NCBI GenBank assembly: GCA_001189095.1
Contig: LFCK01000001.1
Span: 149,251 to 213,250, forward strand
DNA from: Parcubacteria bacterium C7867-001
GTDB lineage: Bacteria; Patescibacteriota; Minisyncoccia; Phycocordibacterales; Phycocordibacteraceae
DNA length: 64,000 nt
Direction: 5' to 3'
Part shown: positions 16,976-61,984 of the stretch, piece after piece
Layout: every line of letters begins with the position of its first letter
Position numbering within the stretch: position 1 is the stretch's first letter
The notes under the pieces: model-generated
Told to the model about the DNA's origin: nothing
Databases searched by the model: none
The model's input: the letters and a program-made list of their open reading frames with translations, nothing else
Made by a program: the position numbers and the translations under genes

Positions 16976-17003
16976 GCAAAAGATCTGTGATCACAAAATC
17001 CAG

Positions 17004-24806: not shown

Positions 24807-24835
24807 AAAAACCGCCTTGCGGCGGCTTTGCAGTG

Positions 24836-45131: not shown

Positions 45132-45303
45132 GCTTATGCTAAGTCAGGTGACTGACACGCATAGCTTCTCCGCCCCGTCACAGCATACCGGCTGAGAGCC
45201 GTATTCAGACAGAAAAGACCGCTCCGAAAGAGCGGTCTTTTCTGTTATCAATATTCAAAATATTAACTAGCAAAGACAGAGCAGTAGCTGGTATTATAAG
45301 GCT

Positions 45304-45876: not shown

Positions 45877-45885
45877 TCTTTACAT

Positions 45886-46545: not shown

Positions 46546-46566
46546 GTATCAGTATCAATCTTTATT

Positions 46567-47307
46567 ATGGACAAAGAAACACACATCGCCGCATCTACCG
46601 AATCTAAGCTCTCAACGCCAGTCGCCATACTTCTCGGCGCGCTCATTATCGCCGGAGCGGTACTCGTAACGAAGTACATGCCCGCGCCAAACAGCGCAAA
46701 CGTGGCGGCGCCTGGACAGCCTCAGGCTCAATCTGCAAATCTTGAAGCAGTGCGTCCGATAGGCGCGGAAGATCATATTCGTGGGAATCCCGATGCTCCT
46801 GTAAAGGTAGTCATGTATTCAGATACTGAGTGTCCATTCTGCAAGCGTTTCCATAACACCATGCAGGAACTTATGAGCACCTATGGTGCAGAAGGTAAAG
46901 TCGCATGGGTATACCGTCATTTCCCGCTTGACCAACTTCACAAAAAAGCACGCAAGGAAGCAGTCGCTAGCGAGTGCGCCGCAGAGCAAGGAGGTAACGA
47001 TGCTTTCTGGGCATACATGGATCGCATGATGGAGATAACCCCTTCTAACGATGGTCTTGACTCGGCGGAGCTTCCGAAGATAGCGGCGTTCATTGGACTT
47101 GATGTGACGAAGTTCAATGCATGTCTTTCCTCAGACAAATACGCAAAGCGCGTGCAGGACGATGCGGACAATGCGCTTAAAACAGGGGGTCAAGGAACTC
47201 CGTGGAGTATCGTTATTGGACCAAACGGGAAGAAGTACGAGCTATCAGGGGCGCAACCAATCGACGCAGTACGTCAGCTGGTTGATATTGCGCTAGCAGA
47301 TAAATAA
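46567..47307 (+). CDS. DsbA-like thiol:disulfide oxidoreductase (CPFC active site), membrane-anchored
   Basis: VVMYSDTECPFCKRFH active site. TM anchor near the N-terminus. Confidence 0.75.
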   Translation: MDKETHIAASTESKLSTPVAILLGALIIAGAVLVTKYMPAPNSANVAAPGQPQAQSANLEAVRPIGAEDHIRGNPDAPVKVVMYSDTECPFCKRFHNTMQELMSTYGAEGKVAWVYRHFPLDQLHKKARKEAVASECAAEQGGNDAFWAYMDRMMEITPSNDGLDSAELPKIAAFIGLDVTKFNACLSSDKYAKRVQDDADNALKTGGQGTPWSIVIGPNGKKYELSGAQPIDAVRQLVDIALADK

Positions 47308-47311
47308 CCGA

Positions 47312-47845
47312 ATGAAAGAGACTCTTGCTAAGGTCTTCAAAGAAACCAGAAGCAAGATTATTGCGACAGGTTCAATGTTAGTACTTTTCAGTGCCATCGC
47401 GCTTGTTCCAAATGCCGGGGTGTTGGGACAGGTGTTTGGCTCGTCAGTGCCATTTGCTCAGAAGGTAGCTTTTTCCTTTACGTTGCTTGGCTCTCCAGCA
47501 GCCAATGCAACTATGTTCGGTTTCGTTGCAATACTTGTAAGCATCTTCCTTTCGGGTGTGGTTATCGCGCTTGCAGTCTATGCCTTTAGCAAGCGTACGG
47601 AGAATGTGGGCGCGATGGGTGTATCAGGACTTGGCATGGTATCTGCGTTTATCGGCATCGGATGCGCGTCCTGCGGATCGCTCCTTCTGTCAGCTCTCAT
47701 TCCTATCTTGGGTATAGGGGCGTTTGTAAGCATCTTGCCGCTCGGCGGGCTTGAATTCAGTATTCTTGGTGTAGTCCTCTTGCTAGTATCGATCTACCTA
47801 CTTCTTATGCAGATAGCGAAACCGAGTGTGTGTGCTGTAGCATAG
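47312..47845 (+). CDS. Polytopic membrane protein with intramembrane CxxC (GIGCASCGS)
   Basis: About 5 TM helices. Directly downstream of the Dsb genes on the same strand. Confidence 0.5.
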   Translation: MKETLAKVFKETRSKIIATGSMLVLFSAIALVPNAGVLGQVFGSSVPFAQKVAFSFTLLGSPAANATMFGFVAILVSIFLSGVVIALAVYAFSKRTENVGAMGVSGLGMVSAFIGIGCASCGSLLLSALIPILGIGAFVSILPLGGLEFSILGVVLLLVSIYLLLMQIAKPSVCAVA

Positions 47846-47852
47846 ATATAGT

Positions 47853-48725
47853 ATGAGCAAGCATTCGCACGACAGCCAGGGAAACATTAAAATAGCGCTC
47901 TTTCTCAATATCTGTTTTACGATAATTGAGCTTATCGGAGGTCTTCTCACAAATAGTCTCGCCATTCTCTCGGACGCACTTCACGACTTCGGAGATACCA
48001 TCGTTCTCTCGCTTGCGTGGTATGCCGAAAAGAAATCTAAACAGGGTCCGGATGAGAAGCGCACGTATGGATATGCCCGTCTCTCGGTATTCTCCGCACT
48101 AGCGTCAGGAGCAGTCTTGATCGGCGGCTCTCTCTTTATCGTCTCACAAGCTATTCCTCGTCTCTTCAATCCTGAAGCAGTTAATGCGCCTGGAATGATG
48201 ATTCTCGCGGTGGTTGGAATCGTATTTAATGGCATCGGCGCATACCGCCTGAAGAAGGGAAAGGGCATAAGCGAACGAGTACTTTCCTGGCATCTCTTTG
48301 AAGACGTGTTCGGATGGACTGCGATACTCATCGGTGGTGGGTTGATCTATCTCTTCGATCTGCCCATCCTCGATCCGATACTCACGATTGGCTTTACGCT
48401 CTTCATTCTGTGGGGTGTGATTCGCTCAATGGGAGAAGTGAGCAATATTCTTCTTGAAGGTGTGCCAGACCGGGTGAACCTGAAAGCTCTTAAGAACGAC
48501 ATTCAGGCATTTGAAGGAGTATTGGGTCTGCATGACGTACATGTTTGGTCTCTTGAAGGGAAGACGAACGTTCTCAGTGGCCATATCGTCATCAATCCTC
48601 AAAGTGTAGATGAGGGACGAGCTATACAGCAGAAAATAAAAGTGATGCTTAAGGAAAAGCATGATATTGAGCACGCCACCATCGAACTTGAGACGAATGG
48701 AAGCTGCGAAGGAAAACCTTGTTAG
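47853..48725 (+). CDS. Cation diffusion facilitator (CzcD/ZitB-like) metal efflux transporter
   Basis: His-rich N-terminus, TM core with LSDALHDFGDTIV (CDF signature), C-terminal cytoplasmic domain. 290 aa. Confidence 0.85.
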   Translation: MSKHSHDSQGNIKIALFLNICFTIIELIGGLLTNSLAILSDALHDFGDTIVLSLAWYAEKKSKQGPDEKRTYGYARLSVFSALASGAVLIGGSLFIVSQAIPRLFNPEAVNAPGMMILAVVGIVFNGIGAYRLKKGKGISERVLSWHLFEDVFGWTAILIGGGLIYLFDLPILDPILTIGFTLFILWGVIRSMGEVSNILLEGVPDRVNLKALKNDIQAFEGVLGLHDVHVWSLEGKTNVLSGHIVINPQSVDEGRAIQQKIKVMLKEKHDIEHATIELETNGSCEGKPC

Positions 48726-48909
48726 ATACTCTTTAAAGCTCTTACCTAAGCCATATTCTAGTCCACACTTCTTCATAAAAACATCATTGACCATGGTGCT
48801 ACCCACGCTATACTAGTAGTACTGGTTAGATACGGTTGTACTCAAGAAAAGCCTATATAGGCTTTTTTGTATTATGAAGAAACGCTGAACGTCCCTTCGC
48901 TTTCCTATA

Positions 48910-50004
48910 TTGCCTTCAATCTTTTTCTCCCGTTCTAAAGCTAATGCTAAGAAGCGCGGTACATACAAAGTTTATAGTTCGGTAGCAGCGGTTTTCGCTC
49001 TATCCTTTTTTATTCATATTGTGTCGCCGCAGTCTGTAGACGGCATTTTTCCTTTTCCACATACAGCACACGCTCAATCTGACGGCGAGGGTGGCATGAT
49101 TCATGACCCAACTATTGACCTGCTCGAAGCTGCCGTAAATTTCGACCCCAATCCAAACAAGGGTGACCATGAAATGGAACTCGCTGGAGGTATAGCACTC
49201 TTGCCTCACGGAGATATTCCGGAGGGCGAAGTCGGGGCATTAGACTCGAAAGCTTCTTCACCAAACAAAACAGGTATTGCAATCTATACCGTTAAGAAAG
49301 GTGACTCGCTCTCAGAGATTGCAGAGGAGTACGGTGTGTCTACAAAAACTATTCTGTGGGCGAACGATATACGAGATGCAAGCACTATTGGTATTGGAGA
49401 CGAGCTCATTATTCTTCCAGTCACAGGTGTTCAGCATAAAGTAGTGAGAGGGGAAACACTTCAATCTATCGCCAAGAAGTACGGTTCGGATGTAACTGAT
49501 ATTGCGCTCTACAACGGCATTAGCGAAAGCAAGGGTCTTATCGCAGGTTCCGAGATCATTGTCCCGGGCGGCGCATTCCCATCAGCTTCTCCAAAGAGTG
49601 TGGCAAGCACCGGTTCATCTAAGAAAAGTACTGCTTCAGCAAAGTCTTCAAGTACCTCTTCCTCATCAGGCAAGTTTGGGAACCCTCTCCCTGGTGGAGC
49701 TATCACGCAGGCAAATCATGGGTACAACGCCGTAGATATAGATGGTGAAACAGGAGACCCTATTTACGCTTCGGCAGGTGGTACGGTCCTTGTTGCTAAA
49801 GGAAGTGGCTGGAATGGTGGATACGGGAATTACGTAGTTATTGAACATGGAGGGGGAGCACAGACGCTCTATGCACACATGTCGAATGTTGCTGCGTCTG
49901 GCTCAGTATCTAAGGGTGATGTTATTGGGTACGTAGGAAATACAGGCAAGTCCACTGGGTCTCATCTTCACTTCGAGGTGCGAGGAGCAAGTAATCCTTT
50001 ATAA
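48910..50004 (+). CDS. LysM-domain M23 metalloendopeptidase
   Basis: Two LysM repeats (YTVKKGDSLSEIAEEYGVS...; HKVVRGETLQSIAKKYGSD...). M23 core GYNAVDIDGETGDPIYASAGGTV...HMSNVAASG...GNTGKSTGSHLHFEV. Confidence 0.8.
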   Translation: MPSIFFSRSKANAKKRGTYKVYSSVAAVFALSFFIHIVSPQSVDGIFPFPHTAHAQSDGEGGMIHDPTIDLLEAAVNFDPNPNKGDHEMELAGGIALLPHGDIPEGEVGALDSKASSPNKTGIAIYTVKKGDSLSEIAEEYGVSTKTILWANDIRDASTIGIGDELIILPVTGVQHKVVRGETLQSIAKKYGSDVTDIALYNGISESKGLIAGSEIIVPGGAFPSASPKSVASTGSSKKSTASAKSSSTSSSSGKFGNPLPGGAITQANHGYNAVDIDGETGDPIYASAGGTVLVAKGSGWNGGYGNYVVIEHGGGAQTLYAHMSNVAASGSVSKGDVIGYVGNTGKSTGSHLHFEVRGASNPL

Positions 50005-50030
50005 GCTTGATTTCAATCGGTATTTTTCTG

Positions 50031-51359
50031 TTATGCGACCGTTATTTTTTTATCTTTCAGAAATAGTTTGGTCTTGAGACATGAGAGCATCTCTCGCTTC
50101 TCGAATATCGTTCCTTCTTTCAGCAGGTACTTTGCGTAGTTCCTGATATCCACGTCTGGTGTTTGAACATCCTTCTTGTGTCCCAGCACACCCACTCTAA
50201 ATTTGTTGAATCGTGCTAGTTCTTGCTCTATCCGCGAGTGCATTCCTAGCTCATCCAGACTCAGTGTGTCCATAAGCTCCACCAGCCCGTCTATAAGTAG
50301 AGTCTCGTTGATATAGGGATTCTGGCATTCATCCCTACCTATCTTGCTACAGAAGTAGTACACATGCCGATTCACCCCTCCATCTTTAAGCTTCTTAAAC
50401 TTCTCGTCAGCAGTAATTCCTGAGGTGCAGTACCCGCATCGAATCAGCTTCGTGAAGGCGAACTCTTTACTCTCGGTTTTCGGTACGTACTTCTGGTCTA
50501 AGGCAACCTGCACCTTGTCGAACAGTTCTTTATCAATGACTGGGCTATGTCGTCCCGTGTACCAGTTACCACTCCCGACAGGGTACTCAAACTCCCCATA
50601 GTAGTACGGGTTCCGTAATATGAGGTAGATGTTTGCGAGCACGAGCGGTTTTCCGCGGTGCGTTTTGAATCCAGTATCCTCGAGCCATCGGTGTAGCTTT
50701 CTTCCGCTCCATTGTTCGTGCGCGACTTTCTCATACATCTGCCGAATCACATGTCCTCGCTTCGGATCTATTCTCGACTGGCATTTCTTATCAACATTCT
50801 TCTCATTCAAATAACCCGTGGGTGCGACTCCTGGTCGAAGTCCCATCTCACACCTCGTGCGAAGTCCACGTTTTACGTTCACCGCCTTGTTGTCATTCTC
50901 GAGCTTTGCCTGACTTCCTAGAATCATCAATAGAAACTTCTCATTCGGATTATTGGTGAATCGCTGTCCGTAGGTGCGTATTTCTACCAACTTCCCCTGA
51001 TCCATCAAATCCACCACCGACCCTAAGTCCCCAGCATTACGCGCCAGACGGTCGGGTGCCCACGTCAGGATGCCGTTGTACTTACCCTCACGAAGCTCGG
51101 CGAGCATTTCGTTGTATATCGGTCTTTGTCCAACCTCCTTAGAGGAGTGCGATTCTCGCTTGGTCTCTATTATGGTCAGTCCATCCCGCTCAGCTAAATT
51201 CAACATCTCCTTAACTTGCGATTCTATTGATAATGCCTGCTTATCCTCGGCTTCCGTCGATTTCCTCGCGTAGAGGCAGTATTTGATGGCTACTGCCTCT
51301 ATAAGAGGGACAGGTCTCGAAACCCCTTGTTTACGCTCACTTATTGCTATTTGTGTCAT
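50031..51359 (-). CDS. Large serine recombinase (resolvase-domain plus recombinase/zinc-ribbon domains)
   Basis: Catalytic AIKYCLYARKSTEAEDKQALSIESQ (Y-A-R-x-S-T serine motif), a later recombinase domain and a Cys cluster (CGYCTS...C). Start placed at MTQIAIS. The ORF track extends to 51518 but would overlap the divergent gene. Confidence 0.8.
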   Translation of the reverse strand: MTQIAISERKQGVSRPVPLIEAVAIKYCLYARKSTEAEDKQALSIESQVKEMLNLAERDGLTIIETKRESHSSKEVGQRPIYNEMLAELREGKYNGILTWAPDRLARNAGDLGSVVDLMDQGKLVEIRTYGQRFTNNPNEKFLLMILGSQAKLENDNKAVNVKRGLRTRCEMGLRPGVAPTGYLNEKNVDKKCQSRIDPKRGHVIRQMYEKVAHEQWSGRKLHRWLEDTGFKTHRGKPLVLANIYLILRNPYYYGEFEYPVGSGNWYTGRHSPVIDKELFDKVQVALDQKYVPKTESKEFAFTKLIRCGYCTSGITADEKFKKLKDGGVNRHVYYFCSKIGRDECQNPYINETLLIDGLVELMDTLSLDELGMHSRIEQELARFNKFRVGVLGHKKDVQTPDVDIRNYAKYLLKEGTIFEKREMLSCLKTKLFLKDKKITVA

Positions 51360-51516
51360 ACAACCACATTGATGACGCCGAACCCCATACGAGTCTAGAG
51401 CGGCTAAGACGCGTTGGAGTTGGCAGAGTCTGCCAGAGATTACTCTTTGTGTAGGCTGTAAATCAGGAGTAAAATGAAGCAAATGAGGCAAGCAAAAGTA
51501 AACGTATTTATTACAC

Positions 51517-52125
51517 ATGCAAGACGATCCATTTCTAGGAACTAAGGACGGGCTTAGTGTCCTAGGTGGAGAAGTATCTAATTTTTACCAATTAGGATTT
51601 GGTCAACTTGATATCAGCGAAGAGGAAATTAGTAAAGCTGGGCGATTGATACATGTTTTGTCGATTATAAAGCTTGAAGGATTACGTCCAGAAAAGTATC
51701 CCGCGAAGGGTGTAACGAATGATCATCACAGGCATTTACAAGGTGCATTATTCGCTTTTGGAACTGAAGGAGTTAATCACGAATGGAGAGAACACTCCGC
51801 ATCATCTATACGAGAAATGATTTCAGGCTTTGCTTCGTCTGAACTGGAATTTAATGAGAACGTAAGTAAGTATGGGACTAATCAGAATACTAATTCAGAT
51901 GAACTTAAAAAGATAGAATCGGCTTGTAAAAAAATAAAGAAGTACTACCAATTTTTTACTGGCGTAACACATCATCAACAGGCAGCCATTACTAATGGAT
52001 TCCGTCAATTAGAAGATTTAAGTGCAGAAAATGAAAGATGCTTGAGCGTCGATAGTTTTAAATTAGTGTTCAAACATTTCTTTATTGATTTGAAGAAAAT
52101 CATTACAGTATTTCCAGACCTATGA
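51517..52125 (+). CDS. Hypothetical protein (202 aa), translationally coupled to the next gene
   Basis: ATGA overlap with the 52122 start. No recognisable motif. AT-rich codon usage typical of the island. Confidence 0.5.
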   Translation: MQDDPFLGTKDGLSVLGGEVSNFYQLGFGQLDISEEEISKAGRLIHVLSIIKLEGLRPEKYPAKGVTNDHHRHLQGALFAFGTEGVNHEWREHSASSIREMISGFASSELEFNENVSKYGTNQNTNSDELKKIESACKKIKKYYQFFTGVTHHQQAAITNGFRQLEDLSAENERCLSVDSFKLVFKHFFIDLKKIITVFPDL

Positions 52126-55064
52126 AACAGCTTCAATTACATCGCAAAATAGATGAGTTTTTGAAAGCAGGAATTGCAACCGCGTCTGTTGATGTTGCGC
52201 AAGGGTTTATTCATGGTAACGAAGACTCAAAGCGGTATTTCTTTGCACAGGCAAATGAGTCTTGGCTAAGATGGTTCTTCGATAATGGTCTCTTTGAGGA
52301 ACTTAAGAAAAAAGCCGAAGATCCGACTAAGTACGGATACCGTCTTTCAGAACTTGAGTATCTAACAAGAATGGCGGATAAAGAGCCTCAGACTGTAGTG
52401 GATATTATTCTTTCCATCTCTATCACCAAGGACACCTTCAATCCTGAGGTAATAGATAGATTTTTCTGGATTACAGGACTACTGCCAATCACTCAAATAA
52501 AACAGATTCTACCAAAGATTCTCTCTGAAAATTGGTTGTTGCTGATGTCACCATTTAGTAAGTCTGGATACGAGTATCAGAAGATGGTCGAGAAGCTAAG
52601 TGAAGCTAAGGATTATGACGCTCTCCTTATTCTCACTCAAATCATTCTCACCGTTCGTGCAAAAGAAGAGTTCGCTGACTCGGAACGCTTTTTCATATCG
52701 GATAAATTGTTCTACCTTGGCGATATCAACGCTACGGGTATATTTGATGTAATCACAAATACTGAGAATCCAAAGAAAGAGGAGTTTTTGAAGGTTACCC
52801 TAGACACCCTCGCGATAGTTGTTGATTTGGGTAAAGAAAGAGAAGAGACTGTCTTTGATAAAACGGAACCGTTTTATTTACTCGATGTCGATATATTTGC
52901 TCTTGAACTTGATACGGGTAAGCGGTCTCATCTAAGAGAAGACATTCAAAATCTTGTTGCAACAGCTAAAGTTCTTGTTCGCTCTACAATCGGCTCTCTC
53001 TGTGAGAACGAGTTAGAAACAAGGCGAATATACGATACATATATTGCGACCCTGCCAGATAGTCTTACTTGCTGGAGATTGAAGCTCTACTCGATTACTC
53101 GTTGCCCCGAGGTCTTTAAAGTTGAAATCAAAGAGGCGTTATTCCGCGCATTCAATGTGGGAGAAAGATATTTTGAAATCGATGGAGGTGCCGAGTACCA
53201 TAGAGGTCTCATTGCTGGTTTTGGTGCACTTGATGATGCGACAAAAAGAGAGTATGTCAGCAAAGTCATTGAATATTACGGCGCTACTTTAGACGATAAG
53301 GATCGAGAGGGGTGGAGAAAGAGAGATGGTCTAGAGATATTAGGCTATATCAAAACTTATCTAACTCCAGAAGAATTCACAATCTCTGAACCAATCTTGG
53401 GAGTTATACCTACGGGTGAGGTTGTTGTACCACATCCGTCAGTCGGAAAAGTCACTAGTGGAATGGTACTCCACAAATCACCGTTTAACCCAGCAGATAT
53501 TACAATCGACGAACTCATTAATCACCTTAAAACTGACTCAACACCGAAAGCACTTAATGAGCAGTACAAGAATGACGATTTCCTCAGCCCGCGCGGAGCT
53601 GAGGGACTTAGTGATGCAATAAAAGAAGATTTTAAAATACGAAGAGTTGAGTATTTGAGCAATCTCAATAAGTTCTTTGACCGTGATGCAATTGACCCCG
53701 TGTATGTTTATGGACTTCTTCGTCAGGTAGAAGACATGCTTCGAGCAAAAGAAGCATTTAGTACTACTGAATATCTTCAGTTAATAAGCTTCTTTACTCT
53801 CATCGAACAATCTGGAACAGAGGTCGAATTTGAGCCAGCAGAGGAAAGACCTTACTGGGCTGACTGGATAACTGTGCACAAATCTATGGCAGATGTGTTA
53901 CTTGAGATTCTTGCACTAATGAAAGATTCCCAGACATTCAAAGATAATAGAGCACAAATATTCTCCTTGGTTAAATATCTTCTTTCCATCAAGAGTAGCC
54001 CTGATGCAGAGGACGATAAACGAGAATCAAATGAGCCAGCTCATGTAGCCATCAATTCCGTGCGTGGCCAGGCGTATAGAGCGTTCGTACAATTCACCTA
54101 TAACGAAGGAAATAAAACATTGTCGGAGGACGTAAAGACTCTCTACGAGCATGTGTTGGCTACTGATAGCTCAAACGCAGTCAGGTTTACGATAGGTCAA
54201 TTTTTGGCATCATTCTATTTCCGCGACATCCCGTTTATTACAAGTCTATTTCCAAAGCTATTCCCGAAAGCAGAAGCCGGTAAAGAAAAGGCTTACTTCG
54301 CGACATGGGAAGGGTATCTCGCGAGCTCGCTATACAAAGAGCTTTTTGAAGCACTTAGGGAATATTACGAATATGCAATAAACATCGATCCAGAGACGTA
54401 CCCTGATCGGAAATACCTCAAAGGATTAGATGAAACTCTTGCTGTCCATATCGCACTTGCGTACGCGCACTTCGATTTCAACATAGGTGATCCTTTGTTT
54501 GATCTATTCTGGAATACTGCTAATGAGACCCGTCATTACGAGTTCGTGTCATTTGTTGGGCGAACTTGTATCACTCGAAGTCAGGCTGGCGATGCTTGGT
54601 TTGCTGAAAATAATGTAAGCAAAGAAAAGCTCATTGAGTTCTGGAATTGGATTATTGCTACAGATATTCCGATTGAATCAAAAGCGTTTTCGGGCTTTGG
54701 GTTCTGGATAAATCCTGACAAGGAAATCATTGATGAGAAGATACTCATCCAAAACCTTTCAACTACTCTTGAAAAATCCGAGGGTGAGGTTGATTGGGAT
54801 TACGGTCTAACCCGTAGAATAAAAGTATTTGCTGAAATTGATCCAGAAAATACGCTCGAAATAATTCGACACTTCTTGTTGCAGGGTAACGAACTGAATT
54901 CGCATAGACGAGCACCTTTATTCAGTATTGATACTGAAATCAAAGAAGCTCTCGAGATTATCTATACGAACGAGCGACTAAAACAGGGTGTCGAAGACCT
55001 CATCAATCTTCTCATTGAAAGGGGTAGTAGTGTCTTCTGGGGGCTCAAAGACATCCTCAAATAG
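52122..55064 (+). CDS. Large hypothetical protein (980 aa, predicted alpha-helical, no recognisable catalytic motif)
   Basis: Single uninterrupted ORF. No Walker, HEPN, PD-(D/E)xK or zinc-finger motifs visible by eye. Weak hairpin (agggc ttcgcaa gccct) after the stop. Confidence 0.6.
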   Translation: MKQLQLHRKIDEFLKAGIATASVDVAQGFIHGNEDSKRYFFAQANESWLRWFFDNGLFEELKKKAEDPTKYGYRLSELEYLTRMADKEPQTVVDIILSISITKDTFNPEVIDRFFWITGLLPITQIKQILPKILSENWLLLMSPFSKSGYEYQKMVEKLSEAKDYDALLILTQIILTVRAKEEFADSERFFISDKLFYLGDINATGIFDVITNTENPKKEEFLKVTLDTLAIVVDLGKEREETVFDKTEPFYLLDVDIFALELDTGKRSHLREDIQNLVATAKVLVRSTIGSLCENELETRRIYDTYIATLPDSLTCWRLKLYSITRCPEVFKVEIKEALFRAFNVGERYFEIDGGAEYHRGLIAGFGALDDATKREYVSKVIEYYGATLDDKDREGWRKRDGLEILGYIKTYLTPEEFTISEPILGVIPTGEVVVPHPSVGKVTSGMVLHKSPFNPADITIDELINHLKTDSTPKALNEQYKNDDFLSPRGAEGLSDAIKEDFKIRRVEYLSNLNKFFDRDAIDPVYVYGLLRQVEDMLRAKEAFSTTEYLQLISFFTLIEQSGTEVEFEPAEERPYWADWITVHKSMADVLLEILALMKDSQTFKDNRAQIFSLVKYLLSIKSSPDAEDDKRESNEPAHVAINSVRGQAYRAFVQFTYNEGNKTLSEDVKTLYEHVLATDSSNAVRFTIGQFLASFYFRDIPFITSLFPKLFPKAEAGKEKAYFATWEGYLASSLYKELFEALREYYEYAINIDPETYPDRKYLKGLDETLAVHIALAYAHFDFNIGDPLFDLFWNTANETRHYEFVSFVGRTCITRSQAGDAWFAENNVSKEKLIEFWNWIIATDIPIESKAFSGFGFWINPDKEIIDEKILIQNLSTTLEKSEGEVDWDYGLTRRIKVFAEIDPENTLEIIRHFLLQGNELNSHRRAPLFSIDTEIKEALEIIYTNERLKQGVEDLINLLIERGSSVFWGLKDILK

Positions 55065-55378
55065 AGCTGTTGGTAAGAGGGCTTCGCAAGGCCCTATATC
55101 TAAGCTAAGGTTCTAAAAGGTAGCGCAATTTGCTATCATAGTCCTTGTACAACAAAGACCTAACCTCTAGAAAACGCTTAGTTTCCTAGAGCATGGTCGG
55201 AATAACAAAACCGCTACAGTATAGAAGGCTCCTCGTCAGAGTCACTGTAGCGGTCGTGTACTCGAAAGGGTATATGGGTTAGGCCGAAAGGTCTGATCGC
55301 AATGGCGGGGAGCCTTCTGTCCCACGACTCTAGGCTCCCTGCTACTTATTAGCAGAAGCTAAAACCGCTACAGTGCAT

Positions 55379-56302
55379 ATGAATAAAAGTATACAAATAG
55401 GCGTATTCGCCTTAGGGATATTTATATTCCAAGCAACCAACGTTCACGCAACTGACTATAACTACCTGCCTCCCGATGTTCTCATCAAACAGCAGGAAGC
55501 GCAGTCAGCTCTTGAGTACCGACTGCAAAAACTAGAAGCATCCGTTTCGAGCGATTCGTCTGCATCTATTGCGAGCCTCAAGTCTCGTATATCCCAACTC
55601 GAATCAGAGCGCACAACGGAGAAAAACTATATCTCAGGAGTGTATGCTCAGAGTGGTATTGCCAATCAGCTCGAAGCTAAGTTAGCTGAGATTGATGCGA
55701 AATACGACTCCCATATAAGTAGCCTGAAGTCACAGTTATCGAAACTCGAGAGTTCAAGTTCAAGCCAGTCAAACAACGAGTCAGAGATCCAGTCCCTAAA
55801 GCTCCAGATTGCCCAGCTCAAGGATAAGATCGCCACTCAAGAACTTCAGGTCAGTGAACAGGCGCTCGAAAAGTATCAAACAAAATACGAGTACTCAGAT
55901 GCAGAAGTGTACGAGGTCTTTACCTATATAGATGCACTTGCTCTCCAAGACTCATCCAAGCTGTTCCAGCGCATCAAAGTCAATAATCCAGAAGTAGCGT
56001 CTCGGGTTGTCGCTTTCTACAACCAGAAGTACCCACACGGGAAGCCGGGCACTGCAATTAACGATGAGTACCTCGCTTCGCTTCCAAAGACAACGGCTCC
56101 CACGCCTACAAAAACTCAGGCTGGAGTAGCACCAACTGTTGTACCGAAAGAGGTAGCAACTACCGCGAAGGATTCTGTCCCAGCAGAATGGCAGATCCCT
56201 CCCACTCCTGAACCAGTCATCACTCCACCAGTAGAACCAAAGCCAACGTTCATTCAGAAAGTAATGAGCTTCTTTAGTCGATGGTTTTTCGGAGGAAAGT
56301 AG
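55379..56302 (+). CDS. Secreted coiled-coil protein with Pro/Thr-rich C-terminal region
   Basis: Signal peptide MNKSIQIGVFALGIFIFQATNVHA. Heptad-like Ser/Leu/Gln repeats. PTPTKTQAGVAPTVVPKE...PPTPEPVITPPVEPKP tail. Confidence 0.6.
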   Translation: MNKSIQIGVFALGIFIFQATNVHATDYNYLPPDVLIKQQEAQSALEYRLQKLEASVSSDSSASIASLKSRISQLESERTTEKNYISGVYAQSGIANQLEAKLAEIDAKYDSHISSLKSQLSKLESSSSSQSNNESEIQSLKLQIAQLKDKIATQELQVSEQALEKYQTKYEYSDAEVYEVFTYIDALALQDSSKLFQRIKVNNPEVASRVVAFYNQKYPHGKPGTAINDEYLASLPKTTAPTPTKTQAGVAPTVVPKEVATTAKDSVPAEWQIPPTPEPVITPPVEPKPTFIQKVMSFFSRWFFGGK

Positions 56303-56642
56303 TAGTTGTCCACAGCCCATCTTGGGACTAGGTTTTAAATTTCCCTTAAAACATAAAGGATTTTTACAAGGGCTTTCTAATGTTCAAAGTTAGAGACCAG
56401 TGTCTGTATCATTTTTGTGATAGCGTTAGCTCTAGAAGCACCAATCACATCAGACCTGATTCTGTGAGCCTAAGCCACTCGCACAATTAAATAAGCCAAT
56501 AAGTAAATCGTGACTTTCTCTACTTGTAGAGAAAGGTATTTCGATTTCTTTGCGGTTCGTCGAAAACCCACCAGAGAGTCGAAGTTAAACTTCGGAAATC
56601 TGGTGGATTTTTGCTTCTAATTACTTAGCTAATTAGAAAGAC

Positions 56643-57971
56643 ATGAACAAGGAAAACTTGAAGATCGAGTACGTAGCCATTGATCAGTTGAATGTGAACA
56701 CGCAGAATCCCCGTAAGTGGAGTGAAGAGCAGAAGAAACAACTCAAGGAGAGTATCAAGCGGTTCGGAAATGTTGATCCGATAATCGTAAATACCCACGA
56801 AGAGCGGAAGAACATTGTCGTAGGAGGACACTTCAGGCTAGAAGCGTGCAAGGAGCTTGGGTACAAGAATATGCCCGTGGTATTCGTGAACCTCACGCCT
56901 AAAAAGGAAGAGGAGCTCAACCTGCGCCTTAACCGCAACCAAGGAGAATTCAATCTTGAGATGCTCGCTAAATTCGACAGCGCAATGCTCCTTGATATCG
57001 GGTTCGACTCGGAAGACATCGATGAGATATTCCCGTCAGTAAAGCACGACCAAGAATTCAATCTTCAGGACGAACTCGACAAGCTCGATATCACGGTCGA
57101 AGCAAAGAAGGGTGAAGTGTATGACCTCGATGGCTCGCGCCTCATGATTGGCGACTCAACCATCGAAGCAGACATGCTGAAACTGATGGGAGATAACCGG
57201 GCGGATATGGTGCTAACAGATCCTCCCTATATCTTGGACTACCTCAAAGGCAAAGGTCGAGGAAAGGATGGTGCAACAGTGGGTTTCGGTTCCAAGAAGA
57301 ATCGTAGGTACCTTGAGACTGATATTCTACCAGACAACTTCAGCGAGTTGTGGATGGCAAATGTCGCCAAGGTCCAGAAGCCTGACTTCTCAATTATCAT
57401 CTTCGAGAACCCAAAGAACCTGCGAACTATTTGGAACGCACTTGAAGCGCACTGGAAGTACCGTAATACGATAACGTGGCATGTGCCCAATCGTATGCAA
57501 GGATTCTCAGCCGCGAATAAGTTCTTCAATAAGACGGACATTGCGCTCGTAGGAGCGAAAGGTGATGTTGCGCTCAACCTAGAACCAGAAGAAGAGCCGT
57601 TCCAGAACGAGTATGAGAACGCGATCTTCGCCACTTCAGGAAAGGCGCACTTCGAGCCGTATGAGAAAGGAAAGAAGATATGCCCGACTGACTTCATCTC
57701 GCACCCAGCGGCAGATAAGAAGTCGTCAGGTCAGGAGATTATCTTCGGCACTAAGCCCATTGAACTCCTCGTTCCGTATCTCAAGGTACTCACCAAGCGA
57801 AATGACCTCATCCTTGAACCGTTCGGTGGAAGCGGGAGCACCCTCATCGCCGCAGTGAAGATGGGTCGCCGGTGCTTCGTCATGGAGAAATCCCACGTCT
57901 ATGCGGAAGTGATTATGAACCGCTGGGAAAAAGAGACAGGCAAGAAGCGTAAGAAAGTCGTAACAGTATGA
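56643..57971 (+). CDS. ParB-like nuclease domain fused to a DNA methyltransferase (N6-adenine / N4-cytosine type)
   Basis: N-terminal ParB-N-like region (YVAIDQLNVNTQNPRKWSEEQ...VGGHFRLEA). Catalytic DPPY motif (VLTDPPYILDY). C-terminal SAM-binding FGGSGST. Confidence 0.8.
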   Translation: MNKENLKIEYVAIDQLNVNTQNPRKWSEEQKKQLKESIKRFGNVDPIIVNTHEERKNIVVGGHFRLEACKELGYKNMPVVFVNLTPKKEEELNLRLNRNQGEFNLEMLAKFDSAMLLDIGFDSEDIDEIFPSVKHDQEFNLQDELDKLDITVEAKKGEVYDLDGSRLMIGDSTIEADMLKLMGDNRADMVLTDPPYILDYLKGKGRGKDGATVGFGSKKNRRYLETDILPDNFSELWMANVAKVQKPDFSIIIFENPKNLRTIWNALEAHWKYRNTITWHVPNRMQGFSAANKFFNKTDIALVGAKGDVALNLEPEEEPFQNEYENAIFATSGKAHFEPYEKGKKICPTDFISHPAADKKSSGQEIIFGTKPIELLVPYLKVLTKRNDLILEPFGGSGSTLIAAVKMGRRCFVMEKSHVYAEVIMNRWEKETGKKRKKVVTV

Positions 57972-58354
57972 CGATAAAGGAACGAACGAAGAAGGATAAA
58001 GCACGCGTACTGGAACACTTGAAAGCGATACCGATTATAGAGGTAGCGTGCAAGAAGGCGAACATTGCTCGCGCCACCTACTACCGCTGGCGTACTGAAG
58101 ACCCTGACTTCCTTAGGGACTCAGAAGACGCACTCGAAGAAGGTATCGCGCTCATTAATGATATGACCGAATCCCAGCTCATCGGTCTCATTAAGGAGAA
58201 GAAGTTCCAAGCGGTGCAATTCTGGCTTCGGCATAACCACCAGCGGTTCCTGCTCAAGGAGAAGGAACACTCGCTGTTGAAGCCCCGAAAGGATGTTGCA
58301 CTCTCACGAGACCAAGAGAAGTCACTCAAGAAAGCATTGGCTATGTACGCATAG
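57968..58354 (+). CDS. HTH protein, terminase-small-subunit-like
   Basis: ATGA overlap with the methyltransferase gene. ACKKANIARATYYRWR helix-turn-helix typical of phage terminase small subunits or transposase HTH domains. Confidence 0.5.
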   Translation: MTIKERTKKDKARVLEHLKAIPIIEVACKKANIARATYYRWRTEDPDFLRDSEDALEEGIALINDMTESQLIGLIKEKKFQAVQFWLRHNHQRFLLKEKEHSLLKPRKDVALSRDQEKSLKKALAMYA

Positions 58355-58375
58355 CTCTCTTTCAGAAGAACGCAT

Positions 58376-59434
58376 ATGAAAAAAGAAACCATACTCCAAA
58401 CCATCATCACTGACAGTGCCGTCAGACGAAGACTCGTGAAAGAATCACACGAGGCGTTTTGTAGTATCTATCTTTCGCACCACATCATGCACCCGTATGC
58501 GTTCTTCCATAAAGAGATGTTCCGCATGACTGAACGAGAAGACGAAAAGCTCTCTGTCGTTATGGCATTCCGTGGCTCAGGCAAATCAACGATTCTGAAC
58601 CTCTCCAATACCATCTGGTCTATCCTCGGTAAGCACCAGAAGAAGTTTGTGCTTATCGTGAGTAAATCAAAGCTTCAGTCTCAGGCGCACTTCCTCAACA
58701 TTAAGTCAGAGCTTGAAGACAACGAGCTACTCAAGCAAGACCTTGGTCCATTTCGGGCGAGTACCACGGAGTGGGGCGCATTCTCTATCGAGCTTCCACT
58801 CTATGGCGCGAAGATAATGTGTATCGGCTCGCTTCAGAATATCCGTGGACTGAAATACAAAAGCCAGCGCCCAGACCTAATCATCTGTGACGATATGGAA
58901 GATACACTCTCCGTGCAGGATGGTGAGACCAGATGGAATCTGTATGAATGGTTCTTGAATGAAGTGATGCCCATCGGAGACGAGAAGACACGAATCCTTG
59001 TGCTGGGAAATCTCGTTGGTAGAGTGTCCCTTATGATCCGACTCAAGAAGCTGATGATGCACGATAAATTGCAAGGCACGTACTACGCGTATCCGCTTCT
59101 TGATAACCACAACCGCATACTCTGGCCTCAACGGTATTCGATAGCCGAAGTGGAGAAACTACGTGATGCGCTCACTGATAAGGACGCACACAGAATGTAC
59201 CGACTCTTTGACCGAGACTATAAACTCAACATGTCCTGCGTACGAGATCCGCTTACCCCTATTCCATACGTATCTCATCCCGTCACCAATACCTCCACCA
59301 AGAAAGAAGACTTCCGCATAACCGCACCGCTCTGGGCGGTGGGCAATCGTGTCTTTGAGGACATGGAAAACATTGATGACCTCGACGGTTGGGACGAGGA
59401 GACGGTAGTGCCGAATGTGGGGCAGGAGTACTAA
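58376..59434 (+). CDS. P-loop ATPase, phage terminase large-subunit-like (apparently short or truncated)
   Basis: Walker A AFRGSGKST and Walker B-like DLIICDD about 100 aa later. 352 aa. No obvious nuclease domain. Confidence 0.5.
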   Translation: MKKETILQTIITDSAVRRRLVKESHEAFCSIYLSHHIMHPYAFFHKEMFRMTEREDEKLSVVMAFRGSGKSTILNLSNTIWSILGKHQKKFVLIVSKSKLQSQAHFLNIKSELEDNELLKQDLGPFRASTTEWGAFSIELPLYGAKIMCIGSLQNIRGLKYKSQRPDLIICDDMEDTLSVQDGETRWNLYEWFLNEVMPIGDEKTRILVLGNLVGRVSLMIRLKKLMMHDKLQGTYYAYPLLDNHNRILWPQRYSIAEVEKLRDALTDKDAHRMYRLFDRDYKLNMSCVRDPLTPIPYVSHPVTNTSTKKEDFRITAPLWAVGNRVFEDMENIDDLDGWDEETVVPNVGQEY

Positions 59435-59457
59435 TCATTGTCTGATAAAATACAGCA

Positions 59458-60195
59458 ATGGATTTTATCGTTATAGGGCTAGTAGCTTTCACTGCTTCCG
59501 CACTCACATTCTTTTCTGGTTTTGGATTAGGAACACTTCTCTTACCTGCATTCGCGATTTTCTTTTCAGCACCAATCGCTCTTACTGCAACTGGTATTGT
59601 TCACCTCCTGAACAATCTTTTTAAGGGAACGCTAGTACGAAAGAATGTTGATTGGCGCACGGTACTTCGCTTTGGACTACCTGCTGTCCCAGCTGCAATC
59701 TTGGGTGCATACCTGCTCACGTATTTAGATACTCGCATCGCAAGCATAGTCATTGGCGTGATACTTATTGCTTTTGCGGTCTTAGAATTCCAGCCGTGGT
59801 TTCAGCGACTGACATTCCCAAAGAAATATCTTTCGCTTGGTGGCGTAGCCACAGGATTTCTCGGTGGACTCTCGGGACAGCAGGGAGCACTACGTTCTAT
59901 GTTCCTACTGAAGTCAGATTTTGAAGCAGTGAAATACATTGCTACCGGAGTCTTCATTGCGATACTCATAGACCTTGCTCGGCTCCCAACTTATTTGCTC
60001 GGTCTAAAGAACGTTGCGTCTATAACCCAGCACGAGATTGCCCTTATCGAGTTTGGAACATTCTGTGCGTTTATCGGTGCATGGCTCGGAGCGAAGTACG
60101 TTAAGAAGACCACTATTGGTTTCATTCGATACATTGTTGCAGGACTAATGCTCTGTGTAGGTACCGCCCTTATCGTCGGACTGATCGGAGGTTAG
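59458..60195 (+). CDS. TauE/SafE (DUF81) family anion exporter membrane protein
   Basis: Two-fold repeated 4-TM architecture with Gly-rich motifs (FFSGFGLG ...GFLGGLSG). 245 aa. Confidence 0.7.
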   Translation: MDFIVIGLVAFTASALTFFSGFGLGTLLLPAFAIFFSAPIALTATGIVHLLNNLFKGTLVRKNVDWRTVLRFGLPAVPAAILGAYLLTYLDTRIASIVIGVILIAFAVLEFQPWFQRLTFPKKYLSLGGVATGFLGGLSGQQGALRSMFLLKSDFEAVKYIATGVFIAILIDLARLPTYLLGLKNVASITQHEIALIEFGTFCAFIGAWLGAKYVKKTTIGFIRYIVAGLMLCVGTALIVGLIGG

Positions 60196-60220
60196 GAACG
60201 GTACTTGTCTCGTATCTTCT

Positions 60221-60838
60221 TCATTTTCTCCTTATGTTTTTTAAGTCTTCCAGCATCTCTGCTTTTAACTTTCGTGACCACGCTTCAGCACGTTTCTTGT
60301 TATGCCTGTCGTACGATTTCCGACTTGCTGAGTATCGCTCAATTAGGGCAGGATTCTCTTTCTTCAAGAACAGGTACTCATAGGGAGTACCTGTTTCGTT
60401 CAAAATGATTCGAGGATGTAGCGTGCCCTCCTTTATATATTTCTTCGCAGTCTGATGTTTGATATCAAACCTGTATTTCAGACTCGACATTGAGAAGTAG
60501 CTATTTCGATGCAGGAAAATGTAGGTTGGTATCATTCCGTCTTTCACTGCCTTTCGGCAAAGAAGACAAGTCTGTCCGTACCAGTCATACCACCCGTTCG
60601 TCTCATCAATCCTGTTGCTACACACAAGACAGGTATATGTCCCGTCTACAGGGAAGCCGTCTGGTTCAGTCTTCAATCGCTTCTTTTTGATCGAGTCTTT
60701 CTTCGACATTTCCCATAAGAGGTCGAAGAAACCTACTAAATTCTGCGCACCCTCACGTGCGTCTTCGTCACTCATCTCCTCACCTTTCTTTCTAGATTCT
60801 TCCTTTAGTTGCTCTATAAGTTCATCGGATACTGCCAT
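60221..60838 (-). CDS. Hypothetical protein with CxxC...CxxC zinc-ribbon (205 aa)
   Basis: YTCLVCSNRIDETNGWYDWYGQTCLLCRKA. Lys-rich C-terminus. AT-rich. Confidence 0.45.
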   Translation of the reverse strand: MAVSDELIEQLKEESRKKGEEMSDEDAREGAQNLVGFFDLLWEMSKKDSIKKKRLKTEPDGFPVDGTYTCLVCSNRIDETNGWYDWYGQTCLLCRKAVKDGMIPTYIFLHRNSYFSMSSLKYRFDIKHQTAKKYIKEGTLHPRIILNETGTPYEYLFLKKENPALIERYSASRKSYDRHNKKRAEAWSRKLKAEMLEDLKNIRRK

Positions 60839-61075
60839 AGGTATCGTTGATTGGCTTGTAAGTGAGACACCGACTGATATCTCCCTTACAGTGTCTCATT
60901 TGTCTTTTTTCGTTAGAATACCCTTATTGTGCCTACGGGAGAGTAGACTGAGACGCATGGAAACGAGACAGTTTAATTCGCTCAGAAACCCTTACGGGGT
61001 CTCACTCGGGTAGGTTCGAGACTGAGTCAGTCAGCAAAATAAGCGCAGCATATTTTGCTGTGGAGAAGAACACGG

Positions 61076-61252
61076 AGTGATCGTCTAGGGATCGAACGCC
61101 GGAGCGATGTTTTGTCAGCAGACAAAACCGCGAGGCGGTGCCTAGTCCGAGCCGAGTGTCGACGAGGTGAGAGACGAAGGAGATATGGCGTATTCGCCGG
61201 CCCTAGTCTCCCAGCTTTTTTCGGAAACCGCCGATAGGGTGCCTTTGAAGCC
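61076..61252. pseudogene. Scrambled partial tRNA-Gln copies (candidate att-site remnants)
   Basis: 21-nt match to the tRNA-Gln anticodon-to-variable region (61232-61252). 15-nt match to its 3' end (61201-61215). 5'-like gtgatcgtctag and inverted T-loop ggatcgaac at 61080-61103. Confidence 0.55.
61110..61174 (+). repeat. Copy B of the ~65-nt conserved element (see 16911-16975)
   Basis: gttttgtcagcagacaaaaccgcgaggcgg...gagtgtcgacgag. Embedded between the tRNA-Gln fragments. Confidence 0.6.
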
Positions 61253-61307
61253 GTGAATCTAGCTGCATAAAAATAAAAGCGGGCGGAGCTATGCTCCGCC
61301 CGCGTTT

Positions 61308-61907
61308 TTATATGATTCGCTCCAGTGTCTGCACGTCTATGAGCGGCGTATTGCCCACCGAGTCGATGATTTCCAGAAGCACGTCCCATTTGAACAGTTC
61401 CGAACGAATGAAGAATGCTTGTACGCGACGCTCTCCGAGCGTTGTGTCGTCAGGAACGATGTCGTAACGATCTTTGTACGTATCTCGACGAACGTTTGCA
61501 GTATCGATGAGAACGTACATCCGATGCGGGTAGCCATGCTTCGCCGCGTTCCGATTTTTGAAGAAACCCTGCCAGTTGTCGCGAGGATCCGTGGAAATGG
61601 AATCGCCAAGAATGTTCGCTGGCACATGAACGTGGATTTCGCTTTGCGGTTCCCGCCAGTAGCCGCTGATAAAGCGACCCCCGAATTCGCCGAAACGTTC
61701 CTTGCGCGAGCGTACGCCCCTCGCAAGGTAGCTTTTGATGCTCCTGAGAATGTGCGCATCACTGCGATGCTTCTCAAGCCAGTCCATGTTTTTGATGACG
61801 GGATCCTCAACTGAGAGTCCCATGAATCCGGTGTCGAACGAACGAGGTCGTTCTATGCGGACCCGCTCGCGCAGTGCGGGCGGGTCCGCTAGTAGCACGT
61901 CAGTCAT
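61308..61907 (-). CDS. Hypothetical protein (~200 aa)
   Basis: Start taken at MTDVLLADPP. High-GC host-like composition. A+T-rich hairpin terminator on the other strand at 61270-61305. Confidence 0.45.
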   Translation of the reverse strand: MTDVLLADPPALRERVRIERPRSFDTGFMGLSVEDPVIKNMDWLEKHRSDAHILRSIKSYLARGVRSRKERFGEFGGRFISGYWREPQSEIHVHVPANILGDSISTDPRDNWQGFFKNRNAAKHGYPHRMYVLIDTANVRRDTYKDRYDIVPDDTTLGERRVQAFFIRSELFKWDVLLEIIDSVGNTPLIDVQTLERII

Positions 61908-61984
61908 GGTCGTACTCCTTTTGTCTGCGACAGACCATAGCACGGTGTAGACTCCCGAGGAAGCGAAACCTAGGAAAGGGTAGA

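Follow-up and report, generated by a model that had tools for sequence, protein, structure and literature searches.

In islands of the tyrosine-integrase type inserted at tRNA and transfer-messenger RNA (tmRNA) genes, the intact RNA gene borders one end, and its 3' part is found again, as an exact displaced copy, at the other. Gene-less derivatives of such islands also exist, including cis-mobilizable elements and products of accretion. The Islander paper describes the 3'-part repeat as the footprint of islands in tRNA genes (PMC4383910). At ssrA of Dehalococcoides, islands encode the large serine recombinase DsiB together with ParB-domain and DNA-modification proteins, are marked by 20-bp repeats and accumulate by tandem accretion (PMC3146451). 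In Patescibacteria, group I introns interrupt the tRNA gene at position 35/36 and possess a group I core (PMC13011429). Here, we describe a stretch of 64,000 nucleotides of Parcubacteria bacterium C7867-001 (contig LFCK01000001.1, positions 149,251 to 213,250; hereafter the window), in which a low-GC island begins at tRNA-Gln(UUG) and module B (61074-61215) lies just outside its right end. Module B is one intact, tRNA-Gln-specific copy of a family of modules of ~110-150 nt, devoid of open reading frames (ORFs), that are docked behind Patescibacteria tRNA genes. The existence of this family, with the architecture described below, is in our view very probable. Neither the module sequence nor a tRNA-linked element of this kind from the candidate phyla radiation (CPR) was found in the literature searched.

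The same architecture is found in more than 30 Patescibacteria loci, invariably on the strand of the tRNA. From 5' to 3', it comprises the tRNA, the 3' part of which is named X, a hairpin, the complement of X (X'), a 41-nt core hairpin, a second hairpin and an exact second X. The hairpin ahead of X' is often terminator-like and begins inside the tRNA 3' end, and the conserved loop of the second hairpin reads CGACGG/GAGYGNCGRCGAG. The module thus drawn is a three-way junction, with a closing helix X':X that encloses the core hairpin and the second hairpin with its CGACGG-type loop. Upstream tRNAs are intact, and most units are 86-280 nt long, with neither ORF nor cargo genes between the repeats. 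As in islands of tRNA genes, an intact tRNA faces an exact displaced 3' copy, the repeat starts in the T-loop or the 3' end, and units accumulate in tandem at one tRNA. The modules differ from such islands by their size, by the lack of cargo and of an integrase in cis, and by the inverted X' of the target that they carry. They also differ in that their conserved part pairs strand-specifically and that the left edge of the repeat is not fixed.

An earlier note on the window had recognized four pieces at 61076-61260, three derived from tRNA-Gln and one being a conserved element, and had read them as a shuffled mosaic at the right boundary of an island starting at tRNA-Gln. All four pieces are present and their exact coordinates are now fixed (Table 1), the matches being slightly longer than first given. 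The anticodon-variable fragment is real and has 22 nt, one base more than noted, and the inverted T-loop piece is also real, with 13 nt instead of 9. The significance of the fragments, which had been named as the point to check, is borne out for the 13-nt piece, the score of which is reached by 0/300 shuffles. The 9-mer of piece 1a has a local shuffle p of ~0.01, and its likeness to the tRNA-Gln 5' part is only marginally significant. The core at 61098-61138 is identical at 37/41 positions to 16907-16947, and the 13-mer GAGTGTCGACGAG recurs exactly at 16964-16976. The core pattern and the 13-mer pattern each occur twice in the window, for expected numbers of 0.00 and 0.14, respectively. Beyond the pieces listed, the window contains no further match to tRNA-Gln of at least 13 nt. 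The order of the pieces is where the first reading has to be revised. Pieces 1 to 3 stand in the canonical order X' - core - second hairpin - X of one intact module. Because the same ordered layout is conserved behind tRNAs of other CPR genomes, pieces 1b, 2 and 3 are not shuffled debris.

The fourth piece is of another kind. This 22-mer starts 2 nt into the anticodon stem and ends after the T-stem 5' strand. The sequence ahead of it, ...ATAGGGTG, is weakly similar to the ...GTGAC end of second hairpins. It has no counterpart in the related loci L036, L019 and L032 and stands outside the module architecture seen elsewhere. It is probably a truncated displaced fragment, the scar of a separate, older event at tRNA-Gln. 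Serial integration followed by decay through deletion, as first proposed for the whole segment, suits the 22-mer, which resembles the leftover of such an event, and not pieces 1, 2 and 3, which are ordered. A fifth decayed piece was considered at 61009-61037, where ~20/30 positions resemble the T-arm and 3' end of tRNA-Gln (p~0.09). This candidate was rejected, the segment being better described as part of the conserved distal block of the island. Being conserved among islands, it may derive from attP.

Table 1. Positions in the window of the tRNA-Gln locus, the island, module B and the sister modules.
Feature	Position	Strand	Basis and remarks
Intact tRNA-Gln(UUG)	45058-45131	+	ARAGORN; Rfam tRNA 63.8 bits; cognate tRNA of module B and anchor of the island
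Low-GC genomic island, ~15.9 kb	45132-61030	.	GC profile, Pfam, PHROGs
27-bp imperfect palindrome ATGCTAAGTCAGGTGACTGACACGCAT / ATGCTAAGTCAGGTGACTGAcacGCAT	45136-45162	+	candidate attL of the island
Large serine recombinase, 442 aa	50031-51359	-	Resolvase, Recombinase and Zn_ribbon_recom domains (Pfam); phrog_95 integrase 7e-60
Conserved distal-end block AGTGTCTCATTTGTCT ... GAAACCCTTAC-N13-GGTAGGTTCGAGACTGA	60889-61025	+	with TGTCTCA/TGAGACA repeats; shared with L160 (two copies) and L036
Hairpin CAGCAAAATA-agcgcagca-TATTTTGCTG, ahead of module B	61031-61059	+	read from the sequence and compared with other modules
GGAG(TG)ATCGTCTA	61074-61087	+	like tRNA-Gln 5' acceptor strand and D-stem; GGAG can pair with CTCC in X
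Piece 1a, GATCGTCTA	61079-61087	+	exact 9-mer, tRNA-Gln positions 6-14
Piece 1b (X'), CTAGGGATCGAAC	61085-61097	+	exact reverse complement of tRNA-Gln positions 51-63 (GTTCGATCCCTAG, T-loop and T-stem), 13 nt
Piece 2, conserved element	61098-61138 and 61154-61166	+	41-nt core and exact 13-mer GAGTGTCGACGAG
Core hairpin, 41 nt: GCCGGAGCG AT GTTTTGTC AGCA GACAAAAC CGC GAGG CGG	61098-61138	+	covariance model R1, 71.6 bits
Second hairpin (3' module): GCCTAGTC ... loop GAGTGTCGACGAG (61154-61166) ... GACGAAGG	61139-61180	+	RNAalifold, 7 B-type copies, compensatory pairs; loop common to copy A
Mini-hairpin GGCG-tatt-CGCC	61187-61198	+	optional insert, also in the second module of L010
Piece 3 (X), CCCTAGTCTCCCAGC	61201-61215	+	exact 15-mer, tRNA-Gln positions 58-72
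X and tail: CCCTAGTCTCCCAGC, then TTTTTT	61201-61221	+	T-stem 3' strand, acceptor 3' strand and discriminator, then tail
Piece 4, GCCTTTGAAGCCGTGAATCTAG	61241-61262	+	exact 22-mer, tRNA-Gln positions 29-50, anticodon stem to T-stem 5' strand
Intrinsic terminator, bidirectional	61279-61303	.	shared with convergent gene 61308-61943(-)
Copy A (type A)	16854-17001	+	directly 3' of tRNA-Lys(CUU), before tRNA-Leu(-); tail ACAAAATCC
Copy A, 24-bp perfect hairpin	16854-16905	+	starts in the tRNA 3' end
Copy A, core	16907-16947	+
Copy A, second hairpin	16948-16992	+
Type C module	24657-24834	-	directly after tRNA-Trp; layout as in the others, core different; order: hairpin, GCGGGCCCACG, small hairpin, X', novel core, X
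Type C, X' CGAGGAATCGAA	24760-24771	-	antisense T-loop
Type C, X TCCTCGTGGGCCCGC	24657-24671	-	exact 15-nt tRNA 3' copy

The distribution of the modules was studied with the core pattern. Using one genome per species, an exact match was found in 14/185,579 species genomes, all of them Patescibacteria/CPR (Paceibacterota, Parcubacteria, Saccharibacteria, Kaiserbacteria and Veblenbacteria), and 23 contigs came from a scan of metagenomes, neither scan placing the core outside Patescibacteria. Almost all of these loci have a tRNA gene immediately 5' of the core and on the same strand. At least 12 tRNA identities are represented upstream of it (Ile, Val, Glu, Arg, Trp, Lys, Ser, Leu, Cys, Asn, Ala, and Gln). 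The full layout recurs behind tRNA-Lys, Ser, Leu, Cys, Trp, Gly, Ala, Glu, and Gln of other CPR genomes. With or without the 41-nt core, exact copies of the tRNA 3' part are found 86-276 nt downstream of many tRNAs. They are 10-32 nt long in more than 10 other loci, and the copy at 61201-61215 matches at 15/15 positions. The complementarity of X' follows the tRNA too. In 20 modules, the 22 nt ahead of the core hold an exact complement of 10.3 nt on average to the cognate tRNA tail, vs 5.3 nt to non-cognate ones. No convincing homology to tRNA 5' halves was seen in the 5' parts of modules in other loci. Copies A and B have no matching family in Rfam 15, either at gathering thresholds or at E<=10. 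A tmRNA or permuted tmRNA was considered, since GGATTCGAAC resembles the tmRNA 5' motif, and was rejected: ARAGORN calls no tmRNA, the element is too short and there is no tag frame. A group I tRNA intron of the Patescibacteria kind was also rejected. Such introns interrupt the tRNA elsewhere, whereas here the tRNAs are intact, the element has ~110 nt and there is no Rfam group I match.

Several types of module can be distinguished. In type B, to which the window copy B belongs, X spans the T-loop to the tRNA 3' end (16 nt further in L009). X starts in the T-loop, and X' is therefore an antisense T-loop such as GGATTCGAAC. In type A, X consists of the last few tRNA bases and the first trailer bases, and X, the hairpin and X' form one long hairpin, with 24 perfect base pairs in copy A. 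The type C module behind tRNA-Trp has relatives as well. Its conserved AGGTCCTGTAAGGACC hairpin is common to L008 and its 3' end cgtactcgcggt to L004. An 11-mer fragment of tRNA-Trp at 24543-24553 was discarded, being no more than expected by chance and located within a probable small ORF. In other loci, the start of the hairpin equivalent to that at 61031-61059 lies within the tRNA 3' end. The nearest relatives of copy B were found in microbial-mat contigs, behind tRNA-Gln(UUG) in L036 and L032 and behind tRNA-Gln(CUG) in L019, L020, and L025. In these relatives, tRNA-Gln is followed by a terminator, by the module, with X' at +73, and by a copy of X not exceeding 21 nt, with no island in between. 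In other metagenomes, the module is ~75 nt after tRNA-Gln, and the copies are near-identical and tRNA-Gln-specific. L036 has a second module, 86% identical, 3 kb further along. In both its modules (B1 and B2), an acceptor-like 5' strand TCYGGRAC pairs with GTCCCGGA. In module B, the analogous strand contains the GGAG at 61074-61087, and the closing helix X':X is CTAGGG/CCCTAG.

The pattern of substitutions indicates how these sequences are read. In the core helix, 97.4% of the cells are paired and 9/14 pairs show double changes, a result reached by 0/500 shuffles. From 7 B-type copies, RNAalifold predicts the three-way junction formed by X':X, the core and the second hairpin, with compensation at 19/36 pairs. 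In the core helix, for instance, GTTTTGTC/GACAAAAC is replaced by ATTCCGTC/GACGGAAT in copy 2 of L036. Conservation extends to the loops and internal loops, with their tandem G.A motifs (GA/GAGG; GAG..CGAG). For the second hairpin, 27/28 copies fold more stably as the tRNA-sense strand, the average difference being -6 kcal/mol. To count wobbles, each 5' arm was aligned to the reverse complement of its own 3' arm, a procedure that favors neither wobble type. In 13 distinct copies, 29 transition mismatches in stems are of the sense type (G.T/T.G) and 1 is of the antisense type. Because of this 29:1 ratio and of the 27/28 folding bias, we consider that the structure is selected as a single strand, RNA or single-stranded DNA, and not as a duplex protein-binding site.

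These data bear on the possibility that the segment is the passive debris of successive double-stranded integrative elements at tRNA-Gln, eroded by deletion. The 65-nt element of the earlier note would then be the leftover of an attP arm. Direct repeats of a tRNA 3' part are the classic footprint of islands in tRNA genes, as reportedly described by Williams in 2002. The 22-mer and the 26 nt that precede it resemble such a scar, and the island abuts the segment. Tandem island accretion that leaves repeats of the target 3' end is known at ssrA of Dehalococcoides (PMC3146451). However, random deletion would not repeatedly leave one ordered layout, inverted X' included, intact behind many tRNAs of many genomes, as is observed. 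The compensatory and strand-specific wobble changes indicate selection on a folded single strand, and most copies enclose no cargo within their 86-280 nt. No tyrosine integrase was found in the window or consistently near modules, and the adjacent island uses a different site, without a detectable tRNA repeat. Passive debris thus fits the data poorly, and we regard it as an improbable origin for the module.

Several observations suggest that the modules move. In syntenic tRNA-Glu loci, L004 (minus strand, ~5480-5640) has an extra module of ~150 nt at a site that is uninterrupted in L024. The core of this extra module is different, its end is a copy of the tRNA-Glu T-stem and acceptor, and it is flanked by a 20-nt direct repeat, ACTTAGTGACTTGTGACCAT, of the end of the resident module. 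Tandem arrays are found in L008, L010, L014, and L036. In L014 (minus strand, 6780 to ~6180), at least 4 modules follow tRNA-Ala, with cores that diverged in a compensated manner, e.g., ATTTTGCC/GGCAAAAT vs GTTTTGTC/GACAAAAC. A distinctive sub-variant of the second hairpin is present both at tRNA-Glu (L004, L024) and at tRNA-Ala (L018). The core is ~100% identical across Saccharibacteria, Paceibacterota, Kaiserbacteria and Veblenbacteria, yet its occurrence is patchy, as seen from the 14 species genomes cited above. Several metagenome contigs end within the core, as is typical at repeats. We give about an even chance to the idea that the module is a site-specific insertion unit, akin to an attachment (att) site and acting as a folded single strand. 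In this respect, the link drawn by the earlier note between the conserved element and recombination at tRNA genes holds.

Integron attC sites and the attP(+) hairpin of CTX phage, which are attachment sites folded from a single strand, offer a model of such an exchange, since the topology of their recombination is that proposed here for the modules. In both cases, the structure is conserved on one strand while the variable sequence is compensated, and arrays form at a fixed site. The succession of an inverted copy, a structured loop and a direct copy beside a regenerated target is also what a single-strand exchange with a folded hairpin leaves. By analogy, it can be proposed that the free form of the module would be ordered X - hairpin - X' - core - second hairpin, with an X:X' duplex that imitates the tRNA gene at its 3' end. 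An exchange inside X would regenerate the tRNA and give tRNA(X) - hairpin - X' - core - hairpin - X, i.e., the observed order. Repeated events would build tandem arrays, larger cargo could end up between X and X', and the moving enzyme would be supplied in trans. The modules are nevertheless not members of the CTX/attC families. They have neither RYYYAAC/GTTRRRY boxes nor the extrahelical-base pattern, their outer ends are tRNA-derived and vary with the tRNA, and they form a branched three-way junction with an almost invariant core and a tRNA-gene target. An XerCD-type recombinase was not found in the window and is not a regular neighbor of the modules, a single XerD-like gene being located ~3 kb from that of L012, and IntI was not searched for.

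Other points weigh against an insertion unit. Neither a recombinase nor a transposase is present in the modules or recurs within 6 kb of them. All-against-all clustering of the ORFs within 6 kb of 37 loci gave housekeeping genes only (pyruvate kinase, DnaG, RluA), and a tblastn search of the window with XerD gave no tyrosine recombinase. Free or unintegrated forms were not found either, and IMG/VR viral contigs lack the core, a looser 14-mer giving chance matches only. At 150-250 nt, a free DNA circle would be of exceptionally small size. Nor does the duplicated X begin at one position, as would be expected of a fixed crossover, its left edge being C56, G57, A58 or the beginning of the stem. 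Each X copy is perfectly identical to its tRNA, which could be explained equally by RNA selection, X' pairing with both copies, or by recent insertion. The difference between L004 and L024 may have arisen by deletion between repeats and not by insertion. Finally, tandem G.A motifs and abundant G.U pairs are typical of functional RNAs.

This raises the possibility that the module is a stable tRNA-linked noncoding RNA gene, co-transcribed with the upstream tRNA or read through from it. The X':X helix, completed in some copies by the acceptor-like 5' strand, would imitate the minihelix made of the cognate acceptor and T stems. The duplication of X would then be a structural need and not the footprint of an insertion. 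RNase P, RNase Z or the CCA-adding enzyme would process the RNA, and the core and second hairpin would bind a protein. Strand-specific folding with many G.U-type pairs, compensatory changes in all three helices, and conserved loops and internal loops with their tandem G.A motifs are as expected of such an RNA. So are the exact identity of X to its tRNA in every copy and the absence of an associated recombinase. In the tRNA-Trp module, P1 and P3 together imitate, over 13 coaxial base pairs, the acceptor and T stems, and the L036 copies end in ...ACCA, followed by a terminator. The modules can thus be likened to tRNA-like RNAs (the tmRNA domain, YrlA, mascRNA, viral tRNA-like structures). Some copies have a coaxial helix resembling acceptor plus T stem, in which the 3' strand matches a real tRNA exactly, some end in CCA, and all are linked to tRNA genes. 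They differ from these RNAs in having no sense T-loop, the T-loop being absent or antisense only. There is no ARAGORN or Rfam match, including at E<=10 for Rfam, and the modules are numerous and arrayed. The acceptor-like helix is absent from minimal copies, such as that at tRNA-Trp in L005, and has only 4 bp in the window copy. No promoter-like site was seen upstream of copies A and B, and an apparent intrinsic terminator separates tRNA and module. Patchy distribution with near-identical sequence in distant classes, tandem arrays, contig breaks and the L004/L024 polymorphism suit mobility better. A noncoding RNA gene is the main alternative, and we judge it possible though rather unlikely.

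Within the hypothesis of an insertion unit, a bolder version can be formulated, in which X' would be a programmable guide of 9-15 nt docking on the single-stranded 3' part of the tRNA gene or transcript, in an autonomous-looking mobile unit that encodes no protein. The invariant core and the second hairpin would recruit a trans-acting enzyme. In its logic, this scheme resembles the guide sequences of IS605 and the bridge RNAs of IS110. More generally, the ends of insertion sequences (IS) of the IS200/IS605 family, their ORF-less derivatives (PATEs), REPINs, IS110 bridge RNAs and the exon- and intron-binding sites (EBS/IBS) of group II introns recall the modules, in which a target-complementary segment abuts the core hairpin on its 5' side and changes with the target, as a guide might. 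They are, like the modules, non-autonomous, structured and strand-specific. In the modules, however, the complement has 9-15 nt and not 4, it also closes a helix with X, and the target is duplicated. Y1 transposases, TnpB and IS110 recombinases were not found near modules. We consider that such a guide function is unlikely.

The island that separates module B from its cognate tRNA-Gln was examined in the same way. Its GC content is 39-50% at 45.1-61.0 kb vs 50-59% outside, which agrees with the first reading of the flagged segment as its right boundary. Its bounds are at ~45.13-45.16 kb and ~61.02-61.04 kb, module B being just outside. The recombinase is the only recombinase or integrase among the island ORFs according to Pfam and PHROGs. 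It belongs to a very large family, with at least 8000 proteins at E<=1e-20. The best 120 matches are all 72-79% identical and come from many CPR lineages. Five homologue loci were sampled (L160, L161, L163, L164, and L165), with flanks of up to 10 kb that do not capture all distal ends. In 4/5, the homologue lies 0.08-1.5 kb from a tRNA-Gln with which it is convergent, as in the window, and that of L164 lies beside a tRNA-Gln 3' remnant only, where ARAGORN calls no tRNA. The 27-bp motif is found in 5/5 loci, once per locus, 2-6 nt after tRNA-Gln or its remnant and with 0-5 mismatches. In the same flanks, the 41-nt core is absent from 5/5 loci, and none has a repeat of the tRNA-Gln 3' end of at least 10 nt. 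Since the homologue loci use the 27-bp site and are devoid of the core, the island is a separate inserted element. The tRNA pieces were accordingly rejected as att scars of the 16-kb island, the recombinase family using the 27-bp palindrome and the five loci having neither core nor tRNA repeat.

At the distal side, two blocks near the right end of the window island are common to islands of the family, TGTCTCATTTGTCT and GAAACCCTTAC-N13-GGTAGGTTCGAGACTGA. Similarity between islands ends after AGACTGA, at 61025. From these sequence comparisons, the block at 60889-61025 is a candidate for the attR side. TGTCTCA/TGAGACA repeats in both orientations cluster at 60864-61025, and a similar cluster precedes the right end of an insert in L036. 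These repeats could be binding sites of an island protein. The terminator at 61279-61303 was considered as a split-palindrome attB of the island and rejected, both halves being intact. When the island is excised in silico, tRNA-Gln comes to lie 50-80 nt from X', consistent with the 73 nt measured in L036 and L019. Thus, the island seems to have been inserted between tRNA-Gln and an already resident module B. The L036 insert, of ~3 kb, lies between two tRNA-Gln modules and is flanked by a 14-nt direct repeat, GACCGGGACAGGGT (2727-2740 and 5546-5559). It contains a gene for a P-loop protein and an IS30-like helix-turn-helix fragment. No island-less relative of Parcubacteria bacterium C7867-001 is available, only contigs of the same strain being on record.

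The proximity of the two elements suggests another explanation, according to which the module would be an attachment part of the serine-recombinase island, either an accessory site of attB/attR or the right end of the island itself. Module B lies within ~50 nt of the conserved distal block, and a homologous recombinase fragment is present upstream of tRNA-Gln(CUG) and its module in L019, L020, and L025. In addition, the 41-bp core is an imperfect palindrome of about the size that is typical of serine-recombinase att sites. Against this, the 5 independent recombinase loci have no core within 10 kb, and modules occur at 12 or more tRNA identities whereas the recombinase family is found only by tRNA-Gln. 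Serine recombinases act on duplex DNA, which leaves the strand-specific wobbles unexplained. This explanation also fits the data poorly, and we hold it to be highly improbable.

The island itself is reminiscent of the ssrA islands of Dehalococcoides. Like them, it has a large serine recombinase and a ParB-domain protein (here fused to a methylase), is specific, in many genomes, to the region 3' of a single small RNA gene, has cargo that varies and is often related to defence, and adjoins other inserted units. It differs by its target, tRNA-Gln in CPR, by the 27-bp palindrome just after the tRNA, and by a distal repeat of the tRNA 3' end that is not significant (20/30, p~0.09). At 45.3-50.0 kb, the cargo comprises DsbB, two DsbA, a CDF transporter and an M23 peptidase. 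The remainder holds, besides the recombinase, unknown proteins, a LOOT RNA, the ParB-methylase, a small-terminase-like protein, a large-terminase fragment and TauE. The terminase-like genes suggest that the island is of phage or satellite origin. In the sampled islands of the family, ParB-methylase and terminase-like genes are found together with defence cargo such as type I restriction-modification. The LOOT RNA (Rfam RF03000; 55157-55298(+); 50.4 bits vs a gathering score of 46.4) is flanked by the genes of an unknown protein of 980 aa and of a coiled-coil-like protein of 309 aa. The exact 11-mer TTTTCTGTTAT occurs in the window only at 45238-45248 and 50024-50034, for a local expectation of ~0.014. 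The DsbB/DsbA/CDF/M23 segment lies between these two copies, the latter of which overlaps the recombinase stop codon. The pair could be a sub-island junction or due to chance.

Two further features of the window may be mentioned. A direct repeat of 187 nt with 74% identity is found at 13773-13959 and 14233-14419, with a spacing of 460 nt. At 10722-10805, two adjacent 25-nt perfect palindromic hairpins (ACGGGCGCCGCGTAGCGGCGCCCGT and a variant), 34 nt apart, are probably back-to-back terminators.

Recognition of the modules guards against mis-annotated island boundaries, the true junctions belonging to a separate, widespread and tRNA-Gln-specific family of serine recombinases. Well-defined attachment sites of serine recombinases are useful for genome engineering. 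In the tiny genomes of CPR/Patescibacteria, conserved non-coding elements call for an explanation, and the module is either a new miniature site-specific mobile element or a new tRNA-linked RNA. If it is an RNA, a new class would be added to those described. If it is a mobile element, it would bear on the build-up of islands and defence genes at tRNA loci and, possibly, on programmable insertion. Should X' indeed act as a guide, CPR would possess an RNA- or single-stranded DNA-guided insertion system, retargetable to any tRNA, that makes landing pads for larger islands.

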